In this document: piece by piece, positions 16,816 to 53,139 of the stretch | How positions within the stretch are numbered: the first letter of the stretch is position 1 | How the letters are laid out: every line of letters begins with the position of its first letter | Source of the DNA: Octopus vulgaris | Taxonomy: Eukaryota | Assembly (NCBI GenBank): GCA_951406725.2 | Contig: OX597824.1 | Span: forward strand, 16,740,001 to 16,804,000 | Length of the DNA: 64,000 nucleotides | Direction of reading: 5' to 3' | Position numbers and translations under genes: made by a program | The notes under the pieces: model-generated | Told to the model about the DNA's origin: nothing | The model's database searches: none | What the model saw: the letters and a program-made list of their open reading frames with translations, nothing else

Positions 16816-16897
16816 TCGGTGGCCGGGTAACTGTTGAGATGGCGGCATGGGTTTCCACCTCGACATACGAAACTCGGAGTTTTATCATGGCTACCGA
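16816..16897 (+). ncRNA. Type I hammerhead ribozyme-like motif with one core mutation
   Basis: Stem I TCGGTGGCCGGGTAA / TTATCATGGCTACCGA; core CTGTTGA (16831-16837, A6 to U); GAAA 16869-16872; stem III CTC/GAG; UH = TT. Confidence 0.6.
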
Positions 16898-17044
16898 ATA
16901 ATTGTCACATTTACAGATGAATTTACAGATGAATTGCTCTATTTATATAATATCGAGGTCACTTTAATTCTTTTGTTGTCTTACCATTTCTAACAATATA
17001 TATATATATATATATATATATATTTTTTTTTTTTTTTTTTTTTT

Positions 17045-17264
17045 TGTACTTGTTTCAGTCATTTGACTGCGGCCATGCTGGAGCACCGCCTTTTTAGAGT
17101 GGTGAAAGAGTACAGCAGGGATCACCACCTCCCTGCCGGAGCCTCGTGGAGCTTTTAGGTGTTTTTTTCGCTCAATAAACACACACAACGCCCGGTCTGG
17201 GAATCGAAACCGCGATCCTCCGACCGCAAGTCCGCTGCCCTAACCACTAGGCCATTGCGCCTCC
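17045..17264 (-). mobile_element. Family A 5' half joined to a family C tail
   Basis: 17097-17264 matches family A head/body; 17045-17095 matches family C tail; both on the minus strand. Confidence 0.8.
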
Positions 17265-17534
17265 ATATATATATGTATATATATACATATATACACAAAC
17301 ATACATATATATATACATACATAAATATACATATACATATACATACATACATAAATATACATATACATATACATACATACATACATACATACATATATAT
17401 ATATATACATATATACACAAACATACATATATATAGACATACATAAATATACACATACATATACATACATACATATATATATATATATATATATATATAT
17501 ATATATATATATATATATATATATATATATGCAT

Positions 17535-17905
17535 GTGTCTGTGTGTCACTTGACAGCCGATGCTGGTGTCTTTAATCCCCGTAACTTCTAAGAGAGATAG
17601 AAATACTAGGCTTACAAATAATAAGTTCTGGGGTCGACTTGTTCGACTAAAGGCTTTGTTCCAGCATGTCCGTTGTCAAATGACTGAAACAACGAAAAGA
17701 ATAAATGAGTAAGCCGGACAAAATGCTTAATGAGCATTTCGTCCGTCTTTACGTTCTGAGCTCAAAATCCGCCGCGGTCGATTTCGCATTTCAACCCTGC
17801 GGTGGTTCGTTAAATTGAGTAGCTGCTGGACACTGGAATCGATGCAATCGACTTAACAGCTTCCCCGAAAATGGTGGCCTTGTGCCAAAAATTTGAAACT
17901 AATAT
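17535..17905 (+). mobile_element. Diverged family C 3' half followed by diverged family B copy
   Basis: Similarity to other copies in this window. Confidence 0.7.
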
Positions 17906-18762
17906 TCATGTCAATATGTTCGCAACTGTTGCTGTTATAGAAAATAGTGACAATGTGAGGAGGAGCAGAATAAAGAGGAAGGAGGAGGAGGAGGAGGAGG
18001 AAGAGGATGCTTCAGTTCGTGTTTGTTGTGTTGTTAATGTTACTGGTAACTACAAGGATGATTGTGGCACTGGTGCCATAATTTTTGCATCGGTGCCACA
18101 ATTTTGGCACTGGTGTTTATGATGATGATGATGAGAACGATAATGACGATGGTGGTTGTGATTTGGTTATTACTTGCTCTTTTGGGATTCAAATTCATGA
18201 GAATAAGAAGGCCTCGTTAAAAGTACTGGAGACGCCAGGTTCTGGTTTTAGTATGGGACACGGATTAAGTCTACCTCACAGTTAAATTATGGCAGGACTT
18301 GAAATATGAACACAAAGAATCTGAACGAATGCAATCCATGATCTTACACATCCGCCACTCACTTACACTGGATTGCTATTATGTTTTATTGAAGCCCAAA
18401 ATATAATGAAATGTGATGTTGGCATCGATAGGATTTGAACTCAGAGAGAAGAACTTCTAGTTTGGAGTATTCTATCCCAAGATCCGACTACGACGGTTCA
18501 CCACCTATGAGTGACAGGAGTGACAGTTTATATTAATACACTACATTATATTAATACATCAATATAATATATTAATATATTAATATATATTGATATATTA
18601 ATATATTAATATATATTAATATATTAATACACTACATTAGTTTTTTGAAAGTAATTTTACTGGTATTTCGCAACCGTTTGATTATTTGGATGCTTATATT
18701 TCTAGTCTTGCATGGTAGTTGGTAGTTTGACAGTTCAGAGATAATGTACATTCCTGAAAGTA

Positions 18763-19218
18763 GGATCTTTACCCTTTGAACAGCAGATCGATAGATTAAT
18801 TTTTTTGTAACTAAACACGTTCAAACTTCGGTCTCTGGTAGAATGTGTCATATAAAACATCTTTTACTCTTAGTGTTGTTGAGAAAAGTTTGTATTTTCA
18901 AAATTATTTCGTGTTAAAGTTCAATGACGTGTATTTAGCTGAACAAAATTACTGCTGTTGTTTGACAACAACTTCCGGCGGTGTATATTTCGATTGTCAC
19001 TGTTATATATGACCTCGTTCGTTCGTTTGTGATGGTTTTAGCTTTAGGGTTTTAGGGTTAGGGTTTTAGAGTTAGGGTTAGGGTTAAGGTTGGGGTTTTA
19101 GGGTTACACTAAGAGTAAACGATGTTTCATATGACACATTCTACCAGTGTCCGAAGTTTGAAAGTGTTTAGTTACAAAAAATTAATTTCTCGATCTGCCG
19201 TTCAAAGGGTACAGATCC
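18763..19218. mobile_element. Non-autonomous DNA transposon, about 110-bp TIRs, 8-bp TSD, internal TTAGGG-like repeats
   Basis: Starts GGATC, ends GATCC; long imperfect TIRs; TSD TGAAAGTA at 18755-18762 and 19219-19226; TTAGGG-like run at about 19043-19105. Confidence 0.88.
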
Positions 19219-19890
19219 TGAAAGTATTACAAATGTGGGTGTAATTTTTCGTATATTAACTGGCATATGGCGTACAAGCTGCGAGTGTGGCAAAACGGCG
19301 GAGCATCAGCATGGTCGCAGCTCTGAGCTGAAACTAGAGAGAAAAAAAAAACCTTCTGTTGACGCAGGGCAGCCTGCGAGTCACCTTGGTCAAGAGCTCA
19401 ACCAATGCCTGTTGCTTCTACTTTTACTTGGAATCCATTTTTGCCTGCAATGAAGAACATACCTGAAGGGGTAAATATCATTACTCCGCACCCCTGTAAA
19501 AATATATTTTGTCAACGTATGCAAAGGTTATGCTATATGTAAGAGTTTTGCAAAATAAGACTAATTCAACTGATTCCTCTTAAGCATGAGAAATGAGAGC
19601 GAAGTTGATGGAAATTGGCGGCTTGGCTTCACAAATAAAGATTCATAAAACGATCTGGTTCCGTTGGTTTCAGGCTCGTAGTTGTTTAATTAATTCGGCG
19701 TGAGATGTGTAGGCGAGGCATTGGGCCTTGATCAGTTGTGAGTTGTTTGAGTTTCGAAAATGAGTGCACCAGTAATTGTGTTTCACAAAATTAAGTTGCT
19801 TTTAATGTTCAAAATTTGCCCGACACCATGGCACAACAAGAATGATTATACGAAAGTGAATTTCGTTTCTTTTCTTATTAATAAAGAGTA

Positions 19891-51121: not shown

Positions 51122-51817
51122 CCTTCTATAAAATAAATTAATTTACTCTGCTATGTATTGAGTACCTTATTTACTGTGGTTAACCCCGGCTCAACCGGGA
51201 CCTACATATATATATATATATATATATATATATATATATATATATATATATATATATATATGTATATGTATGTATATATGTATATATATGTATGTATGTA
51301 TGTATGTATGTATGTATGTATGTATGTATGTATGTATGTATGTATGTATGAATGCATATATTCTTTAGTTCTTTTAGTGTTTGATATCAGTCACTGACCT
51401 GTCATCATGGCGAGTCTCCATCTTGAAATCGTCGGTCAATCACGTCGATCCCACTATAAATCAGATATTACTCCATTATTCTCTATGTGCTGTAGAAATA
51501 CTTTGCAGGACCCAAGCAACCGACACCACACCTCAAAAGGTTCCAAAAATAGTCAAACACAAAATTACACACTGAAAGACACACACACACACATCCACAC
51601 TTAAATCACATACATGCGCGCCCCTTTATAAAATGTTTGCCTCCCTGCATCCAAGTAGGTCGGCAAAATAATAAGTATCAGATAGAATAAGGATCAGACT
51701 TTGGCAAAAATATGTACCGGGGTCGATACGTTCGAGTAAAAATAAATTATTCAAGATGGTTATACATCATGGCTGCAGTCTAATAAATGAAACAAGTAAT
51801 ATATATATATATATATA

Positions 51818-52225
51818 GGCACAGGAGTGGCTGTGTGGTAAGTAGCTTGCTAACCAACCACATGGTTCCGGGTTCAGTCCCACTGCGTCGCATCTTGGGC
51901 AAAGTGTCTTCTGCTATAGCCCCGGGCCGACCAATGCCTTGTGAGTGGATTTGGTAGACGGAAACTGAAAGAAACCTGTCGTATATATGTATATATATAT
52001 ATGTGTGTGTGTGTGTCTGTGTTTGCTCCCAAAGTATTGCTTGACAACCGATGCTGGTGTGTTTACGTCCCCGTCACTTAGCGGTTCGGCCAAAGAGACA
52101 GATAGAATAAGTACTGGGCTTACAAAGAATAAGTCCCGGGGTCGATTTGCTCGACTAAAGGCGGTGCTCCAGCATGGCCGCAGTCAAATGACTGAAGCAA
52201 GTAAAAGAGTAAAAGAGTAAAAGAG
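51818..52225 (+). mobile_element. SINE family C, full length
   Basis: Head GGCACAGGAGTGGCTGTGTGG through (GTAAAAGA)3 tail. Confidence 0.93.
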
Positions 52226-52570
52226 AGAGAGTATATATATATATATGCCCCAAGGACGAACTACCTTAACATATAAGTACAAGAACACCATGCACAAAAC
52301 AAAAACAAATGCAAAATAAAACACACAAATTAACGACAAAAAATTTACCCAAAATTCAAATCCAACGGAGACAAAGATTCAAATGATGACACTAGGATAT
52401 TTTCCTGCTATTCTTAACATGAAGCCAATGAAAGCCTTAATTCACAAATAAAGAAAGTGTATAGCCACCAATTCGATGTTGAGCACTCATTTCATCGTTC
52501 GACACTTACGAATATATGTATATATATATATATATATATATATATATATATATATATATATATATATATA

Positions 52571-52815
52571 CTGTTGTGTCTAGGGAGAGTCATTTTCTTT
52601 ATACGTCTTATAATTTAACCCACTCTGTGGTAAAATTTCCACTTATTCCTTATTTTTATTTTTCTAAAACTTTCGTTGCGTCTTGCAACCTTTTCATTAG
52701 TCTTGACAATTATAAGGCTCAAAAAGAAAATGACTCTTCCCAGATACAGCAGAATATGCTTCAACACACGAACTCGCATAAAGAATCTTGCAAACCAAAT
52801 CCCAAAACGAAGTAA
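52571..52815. mobile_element. (TA)n-embedded fold-back element with degenerate hammerhead-like motif on the minus strand
   Basis: Imperfect arms 52571-52616 / 52708-52752; minus strand CTA-ATGAAAA-G-GTTGC AAGAC GCAAC-GAAA-GTTT-TAG at about 52664-52700. Confidence 0.5.
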
Positions 52816-52825
52816 GTATATATAA

Positions 52826-53033
52826 TATGTGACCTCGTGAGTACCACTGGCGATTTTTTTCTTTTGTCTTCCCTTCTCGGGATCTTTCCTTCTCCTATGT
52901 TTCCGACGAAGAGCTCCGCTCGAAACGTTAAACCCTCCTTCTTCCCTTCTTTCCTGAGCGTCCAATAATACTTTATTTGTTCCACGTCCTCGCGTTGTTG
53001 TTTTGTTTTTTGTGTTTTCTTGTTTGGATTAAC
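52826..53033 (+). mobile_element. Family H1 short element with minimal hammerhead (CCGACGA core)
   Basis: GTTT-CCGACGA-A-GAGC TCC GCTC-GAAA-CGTT-AAAC at 52899-52933; flanked by TA-rich tracts. Confidence 0.72.
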
Positions 53034-53088
53034 TATATATATATATATATATATATATATATATATATATATAAATATAGCACGGATT

Positions 53089-53139
53089 TTTGTCAGTGAA
53101 CAGGTCGCGGTCTTAAAGCGACGAAACTATTTTGACAAA
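53089..53139 (+). ncRNA. Hammerhead ribozyme variant with G3-C8 swapped core
   Basis: Stem I TTTGTCA/TGACAAA; core GTGAACA; extra G; stem II GTCGC/GCGAC; GAAA; CTAT-TT; in an about 210-bp island (53072-53280) between (TA)n tracts. Confidence 0.65.

Follow-up and report, generated by a model that had tools for sequence, protein, structure and literature searches.

The closest described systems to the sequences reported here are the hammerhead ribozymes of Penelope-like elements (PLEs). In the minimal hammerheads of these retrotransposons, A9 is followed by an additional base, a G10.1-C11.1 pair is present and stem III is palindromic. Most of them occur singly or as opposite-strand pairs derived from truncated PLEs, and no cleavage of the single motifs could be detected in vitro (Cervera & De la Pena 2014, PMC4209133). 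We analysed 64,000 nucleotides of Octopus vulgaris DNA (contig OX597824.1, positions 16,740,001 to 16,804,000, called the window below), in which descriptor and log-odds scans gave nine candidate type I hammerhead islands with motifs spanning 16826-53139. Our analysis suggests that the islands are 5'-truncated terminal repeats (ends of pseudo-long terminal repeats, pseudo-LTRs) of several PLE families and are mostly inert, and we put the probability of this reading at roughly 0.75.

PLE insertions are recognised by 5'-truncated copies in inverted orientation, by tails of 30-40 bp on one side only and by their targeting of (TA)n (Craig et al. 2021, PMC8557442). The same paper, the only directly relevant one that we found on cephalopod or octopus Penelope hammerheads, reports that Hydra-clade PLEs insert into (TA)n, including the octopus member Hydra-1_Obim with its annotated hammerhead, and that the hammerhead is absent from very successful PLE clades. 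For Poseidon of Anolis, the tail comes from two internal start sites of reverse transcription and the target is AT-rich; hammerhead cleavage there needs protein, cleavage-dead RNA still inserts, and the C3G/G8C double change is partly active (Frangieh et al. 2024, PMC11167929). Penelope is an abundant repeat of coleoids (PMC8967140). In O. vulgaris, PLEs make up 6.83% of the genome and fall into 190 families, 31 of them with recently active insertions (PMC13282606); the words 'ribozyme' and 'hammerhead' have no matches in the searched part of that paper's supplement.

The PLE reading is based on the following evidence. PMC4209133 lists the extra base after A9, the G10.1-C11.1 pair and the palindromic stem III as characteristic of PLE minimal hammerheads, and inverted 5'-truncated copies (islands E, H and J) together with one-sided tails (E and J) are a PLE signature. 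Islands A, H and J resemble the motif table of the (TA)n-inserting Hydra clade (PMC8557442). The motif counts exceed those of shuffled sequences, and the motif of the recurrent family H1 is near a PLE-associated Acropora motif. An earlier note on this DNA had listed mostly dead Penelope ends among its options, and both this option and the PLE link fit the motif traits, inverted copies, tails and TA flanks.

Motif detection and island architecture

The earlier note had counted about nine hammerhead islands. Nine candidates were indeed found (Table 1), but only five are firm, and their identity with the earlier nine is uncertain since no per-island coordinates were given there. Well supported by the scans are the three H1 copies and the motifs at 52700 (-) in island E and 53089 (+) in island F. 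The motifs at 16826 (+), 42568 (-) and 50180 (+) are plausible and weak taken singly, and the pair at 51077 (+) and 51069 (-) is incomplete, with both core boxes present and stem I absent. The core boxes C3-A9 and GAAA, the 3-8 pair, the UH site and stems I and II, with at most one core change, are present in H1a, H1b, H1c, E, F, H, A and L. The motifs also have in common an additional nucleotide behind A9 and the palindromy of stem III, in which the F and E copies each have one mismatch.

The motif order described earlier (stem I, NUGANNA, stem II, GAAA, stem III, UH, stem I') gave no match in the window when taken literally, with no extra base. It does hold in its PLE form: a descriptor with the extra nucleotide after A9, the G10.1-C11.1 pair and at most one core mismatch gave 4 matches against a shuffle mean of 0.275, and 0 of 40 shuffles reached 4. 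With the G10.1-C11.1 pair dropped there was no excess (4 matches against a shuffle mean of 4.9; 32/40). In the log-odds scan 5 motifs reached 22 bits or more, compared with an average of 0.27 such motifs per shuffle over 49 shuffles. Scores of 31.8, 28.8 and 28.8 bits put three of the motifs above the best of the 49 shuffle maxima (25.0), and the two below it (23.0 and 22.2) were accepted because they are homologous to H1 or backed by family data. The comparison with shuffles that had been proposed for relaxed descriptors is thus favourable in the strict setting and for the three top-scoring motifs, but not in the loose setting. All the descriptors were tuned after the motifs had been seen, and the shuffle figures are therefore generous.

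Further descriptors gave the weaker candidates. A long-stem-II descriptor adds 50180-50265 (+), with an equal match in 5/40, 14/100 and 21/200 shuffles (10-14%). Two more, 16826-16886 (+) and 42568-42463 (-), appear when stem III must be 4 bp long and perfect; these 2 matches are equalled by 4-7 of 300 shuffles, while 16826 (+) taken alone is equalled by 32 of 300. A CCGANGA descriptor gave 3 matches, two of which are H1 copies, against a shuffle mean of 0.04 (0/200).

Several other candidates were dropped. The motif at 41519 (+), in a TA-flanked island (41471-41655), is a core string alone with no stable fold. The sequence at 50328-50477 is TA-flanked with hairpins and has at least 3 core changes by eye, and a complete hammerhead is absent. 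The AT-rich match at 40425-40370 (-) scores 20.4 bits, inside the shuffle null, and the motifs at 36974 (+) and 62291 (+) have two mismatches each. Log-odds matches in TA tracts were dropped as well.

The islands are 130-320 bases long, and most of their ends directly abut TA. The adjacency to TA microsatellites reported before is confirmed: for 8 of the 9 motifs the nearest (TA)6+ tract is no more than 141 nt away, and for comparison 32% of the window outside TA is found 200 nt or less from such a tract. Fold-back arms, also reported before, are present in E, H and J, in each case head to head. The arms of island E are 50 nt long with 82% identity, those of H are 101-102 nt and 100% complementary, and those of J are 56 nt and 96%. 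E and J also carry tails of ~55 nt and ~74 nt, respectively, on the + arm only.

A mechanism known from other PLEs would account for this architecture. As inferred from PLE biology, an element-encoded GIY-YIG nuclease would nick (TA)n or AT-rich DNA. Reverse transcription would start internally on the RNA, at either of two sites close together, which would produce a one-sided tail, and would end early, giving the 5' truncation; a second truncated copy would often be left head to head with the first. The hammerheads are predicted to act only as dimers or with the element protein, and a dimer model is in keeping with the stem III of H1, H, A and L, which is self-complementary in each. The templates of the retained copies were probably uncut, because the copies retain both sides of the predicted cut and none of the three inverted pairs (E, H and J) has an arm that begins at the cut site. 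Lone, mutated hammerhead copies are probably inert.

Copies in other data, the H1 family and the C4 core

We compared sequencing runs over 52571-53033, which covers island E and the third H1 copy (H1c). Part of this region is contained in 20 of the 24 listed runs, from 10 studies, and none holds more than 0.35 of its words. Four runs were aligned at 80% likeness, namely the contig runs X3, X9 and X17 and the raw reads of X22; the RNA nature of X9 and X17 is only guessed. Of the runs X14-X21, which have small shares, X17 alone was included. Matching contigs number 24681 in X3, 5815 in X9 and 416 in X17, and these numbers indicate that the H1 and E families are high-copy. The stem III palindrome of island E, broken in the window copy, is intact in 95-99% of the depth, i.e. 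in the family majority. Core position 3 of island E is U in two X3 contigs, and U3 is not in the variant table. Among the joints listed in X3 (15 of 50), 8 of the 15 connect 52694-52707, at the 5' end of E, to varied points of the opposite arm in 52750-52786, as expected from independent head-to-head insertions with variable truncation.

The earlier note had also raised host pre-mRNA cutting and circular RNAs. That the islands are active retrozymes, which self-cleave, circularise or cut host pre-mRNA, seems to us quite improbable. In favour of such activity, the cores of islands H and F are intact or compensated and their stems are long, the arms of H are 100% identical and hence young, and matching contigs occur in X9 and X17; however, the RNA label of the two runs is a guess. 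Besides the arm starts mentioned above, the window repeat scan places no hammerhead island in a tandem array. No back-joint is among the X3 joints listed (15 of 50), and a pile-up was not seen among the loose ends listed. Stems III of same-strand neighbour motifs match poorly, and heterodimers of such neighbours were rejected as their stem III duplex energies are +1.0 and +0.9 kcal/mol. Both strands are used (5 motifs on +, 5 on -), and no host exon was identified in the window frames. Single minimal hammerheads are uncleaved in vitro (PMC4209133), and the part of the Anolis study concerned reports no PLE reads ending at the cut site (PMC11167929). Pre-mRNA cutting and circular RNA are hence unsupported, given that most copies have core or stem changes, with no tandem unit and no cut-site boundary.

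The threefold recurrence of H1 reported before is borne out, the window copies having 77-93% pairwise identity. All three begin at the same base, ~70 nt upstream of stem I. At core position 4, H1 has C instead of U in 74%, 92% and 73% of the depth in X9, X17 and X3, respectively. Alleles of the H1b type at 52969 and 52976 have frequencies of 9-29% in these runs and U4 has 7.5-27%, both unphased. The resemblance of these frequencies suggests a minority U4 subfamily within H1. We also considered CpG decay as the source of U4, but in the H1 motif none of the four remaining CpG cytosines is a variant of at least 10% among the variants listed (40 of 46), and a subfamily split is therefore preferred over simple CpG decay.

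Island L, unrelated to H1 outside the core, likewise has C4. A TA-flanked island at 2109-2404 (+) shows a decayed hammerhead-like fold with a 10-bp stem II, the core ACGACGA, a damaged stem III and a stem I common to island L; it is possibly a third C4-type core. The C4 core of H1 would be expected to weaken self-cutting. U4C occurs in a viroid, where its activity is lower in vitro and sufficient in vivo (Perreault et al. 2011, PMC3088659). No report of U4C in PLEs was found in the literature searched, though Luense et al. 2017 on PLE hammerhead variants may cover it.

Because of its shared 5' start, H1 is perhaps a non-autonomous unit like the retrozyme monomers. H1, and perhaps other islands, could be a discrete ~205-base unit (a solo pseudo-LTR or a retrozyme monomer) with its own transcription start, copied whole by PLE protein, where the weakened C4 hammerhead keeps the RNA intact and favours its spread. 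This is compatible with a PLE origin and differs by claiming an independent life, and we regard it as possible but tentative. The common start in 3/3 window copies and in the loose ends of two runs speaks for it, as do the C4 majority (73-92% of depth) with U4 apparently a minority subfamily. Retrozymes have also been reported as PLE-derived with dispersed monomers (bioRxiv 10.64898/2026.07.22.740005), and the hammerhead-dead RNA of a PLE still inserts in vitro (PMC11167929). On the other hand, the contig depth drops 36- to 61-fold from the peak to the H1 5' bin in three contig runs, which fits truncation, though the window copy's own divergence there confounds this. A strong stop of reverse transcription could equally produce a common 5' end, and just three full copies are seen.

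We speculate further, with more doubt than for the H1 unit taken by itself, that octopus PLE-derived families fixed a U4C core more than once (the H1 majority, island L and perhaps the 2.2-kb island) and that H1 spreads as a discrete 205-base non-autonomous unit whose weakened ribozyme spares its RNA. If this is true, a large class of hammerheads in animals would escape standard CUGANGA searches, and nature would have provided, in the paired U4 and C4 subfamilies, a test of whether PLE copying is helped or hindered by cleavage.

Searches for H1 elsewhere gave 0 matches to an H1-specific pattern in viral contigs and 0 in metagenome contigs. A relaxed H1 pattern, with stem I and UH unspecified, gave 0 in viral contigs and 3 metagenome loci (L001-L003), all with canonical U4. 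Two of the three have both stem I and UH, features outside the search pattern, and between H1 and two unrelated metagenome loci 3 of the 4 stem I pairs are changed on both sides. The L002 motif lies within a head-to-head pair. L001 lacks stem I and U16.1 and was rejected as probably chance or decayed. As a control, the C4 string has 120 loci in viral contigs, of which 9 have a stem I of at least 3 bp and 0 have both stems. L003, an animal contig, contains a second head-to-head pair at 3540-3768, where the sequence is intron-like; its arms are 108 nt long (89%), and by eye it is another PLE-type end.

A number of observations weigh against the islands being truncated PLE ends. The Rfam check proposed earlier was negative: there are 0 matches at the gathering level over the whole window, and no hammerhead family is among the 18 matches at E<=10 over 52575-53275. 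At E<=10 over the window, the 150 of 490 matches listed are TA-driven, mostly microRNA models, with no hammerhead among them. Islands A, H, J and L are singly not significant against shuffles. The H1 start of the window copies is also shown by 14 contigs in X9 and 4 in X17, and random truncation does not predict a shared start. X22, a genomic run of 2026 that carries the species label of the best-holding run, has only 11 reads from 1934 million letters on 52571-53033. The link to an autonomous element, which in EN+ PLEs has an open reading frame for a telomerase-like reverse transcriptase and a GIY-YIG nuclease linked to the terminal repeat, is one that we infer, since no reverse transcriptase or GIY-YIG match occurs in any of the 237 filtered frames of at least 50 aa in the window, although the absence of a PLE open reading frame is expected for truncated ends; a convincing host domain or exon is likewise absent from these frames, which short exons would escape. 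By eye, no PLE-like frame is evident in the open reading frame lists of L001-L003, and four window motifs gave 0, 0, 0 and 1 unrelated match in the searched part of the Naiad/Chlamys/Hydra consensus supplement.

The silence of Rfam, the tuning of descriptors after inspection and the loose descriptors that match shuffles as often as the window would also be understood if the motifs were chance matches in AT-rich repeat debris. This may well apply to one or two of A, J and L. As an account of the whole set it is very unlikely, as three motifs beat all 49 shuffles, stem I covaries in 3/4 pairs between H1 and two unrelated loci and the family majority restores the palindrome of island E; for H1, E and F it is already refuted.

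Feature catalogue and neighbouring sequence

Table 1. Candidate hammerhead islands in the window, with strands and predicted cut sites.
Feature	Span	Strand	Setting	Hammerhead	Motif details
Island A	16803..16996	+	between (TA)12 and (TA)13	16826-16886 (candidate)	A6U core change; long imperfect stem II; stem III ACUC-G-GAGU; predicted cut after 16881; low log-odds score (14.3 bits), moderate support
H1 copy a (H1a)	24618..24823	-	TA at both sides	24753-24719	C4 core; extra A9b; palindromic stem III ACGU; predicted cut after 24723
H1 copy b (H1b)	42122..42300	-	diverged, 3' end shorter	42229-42197	canonical CUGACGA core (U4); one stem II pair broken
Island L	42300..42620	-	5' boundary approximate; adjoins H1b, not a TA tract	42568-42463 (candidate)	C4 core; 5-bp stem I; long stem II; 8-nt palindromic stem III
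Island H	50034..50327	+	head-to-head pair	50180-50265	canonical CUGAAGA core; 6-bp stem I; long stem II; self-complementary stem III; predicted cut after 50259
Island J	51010..51206	.	head-to-head pair	51077 (+)/51069 (-), motif pair	each arm begins at CUGAUGA...GAAA core; 5' stem I strand absent
Island E	52571..52811	-	head-to-head pair	52700-52664, on - arm	3-8 pair broken in window copy; stem III palindrome with one mismatch
H1 copy c (H1c)	52829..53033	+		52899-52933	C4 core; predicted cut after 52929
Island F	53074..53280	+	between (TA)20 and (TA)14	53089-53139, best-scoring	G3-C8 swap; 7-bp stem I; 5-bp stem II; stem III palindrome with one mismatch; minimum free energy fold recovers stems I and II (z -2.37)

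The window has 34% GC and is rich in (TA)n and other microsatellites. A remnant of a mariner (Mos1-like) transposase lies at 682-930 (Pfam HTH_48, E 9e-18), followed by a SINE-like repeat within 682-1080; the closest named homologs of the remnant are from Octopus bimaculoides, with 70-72% identity. Tandem arrays at 15494-16528, 25981-26865, 35234-36540 and 55936-56675 consist of 173-223-base units, 86-96% alike, of an abundant SINE-like repeat, which we take to be octopus SINEs. Decayed coding-like sequence adjoins (AAT)n tracts at 29450-30400 and has no Pfam match; it presumably resembles the 3' end of a Dong/R4-type LINE.

Two inverted pairs were also observed. One has arms of 375 bases at 6006-6380 and 6807-7179, 97% identical and separated by a 426-base spacer. 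The other, a MITE-like inverted repeat of 115 bases (91%) at 18762-18876 and 19106-19219, flanks a degenerate TTAGGG run at 19034-19097. Family K has two TA-flanked copies, 24896-25073 and 46149-46290, with 80% column identity; it shows a terminal fold-back whose centre is not the same in both copies, and a hammerhead core was not found in it.

Comparison with known systems

The islands had been called probably uncatalogued. This can hold at most for these particular families, since earlier publications already cover the class, its targeting of (TA)n, its inverted truncated copies and the hammerhead of Hydra-1_Obim, and 190 O. vulgaris PLE families are annotated. The island families may already be in existing repeat libraries, without ribozyme annotation. 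As to the role of the PLE hammerhead, the motif is conserved, although insertion in vitro proceeds without its activity (PMC11167929) and very successful clades lack it (PMC8557442). A high-copy family whose C4 subfamily outnumbers U4 could directly test this role, and hammerhead censuses that use a fixed CUGANGA box undercount.

Retrozymes without LTRs are similar to the islands in several respects, being ORF-less, 150-400 nt long and PLE-related, with type I hammerheads and dispersed monomers (PMC7229834; bioRxiv 10.64898/2026.07.22.740005). However, retrozymes are defined by head-to-tail tandem units with a hammerhead, which the islands do not have; these are single or form inverted pairs with minimal motifs. 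The retrozymes of Cervera & de la Pena 2020 (PMC7229834) have canonical hammerheads and circular RNA, unlike the minimal motifs here. H1 is possibly like the retrozyme monomers of Li, Clavereau & Pollet 2026 (bioRxiv 10.64898/2026.07.22.740005) and of PMC7229834.

Poseidon was studied as an intact element with its protein, whereas the islands are ends only. The core state of island F equals the C3G/G8C change of that study (PMC11167929). The tails of islands E and J (~55 and ~74 nt) exceed the published PLE range given above (PMC8557442).

The Hydra clade shares with the islands the (TA)n targets, a hammerhead near the 3' end, a 3-4-bp stem III with a 1-2-nt loop and inverted truncated copies. 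By eye, the stem III of island A is identical to those of Hydra-2_Amil and Penelope-16_HM, and the U-U closure of stem II in island J is as in the Penelope_HM entries (PMC8557442), while no island matches the 3' end of Hydra-1_Obim. H1, E and F have a shorter stem III, as in other PLE clades and unlike the Hydra clade. The likeness to this clade, whose proteins are marked by RWK and DKT motifs and an EN without CCHH, is one of hammerhead shape and target only, and with no open reading frame in the islands their clade is not established.

The metazoan PLE minimal hammerheads (PMC4209133) agree with the islands in being of type I, with a short stem I, palindromic 15.2-16.2 and many divergent families per genome. 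The H1 motif is close to the PLE-associated Acropora digitifera entry of the supplement, while four CCGA strings and the word 'Octopus' have 0 matches in one file of it. The stem II of H and L is far longer than in these hammerheads. U3-A8 is among the variants in the part of that paper concerned, and C4 (H1 and L) and G3-C8 (F) are not. Our findings thus add octopus examples to an already described pattern; what may be new here are the C4 core, in the H1 majority and island L, and the common 5' start of H1, the rest being largely known.

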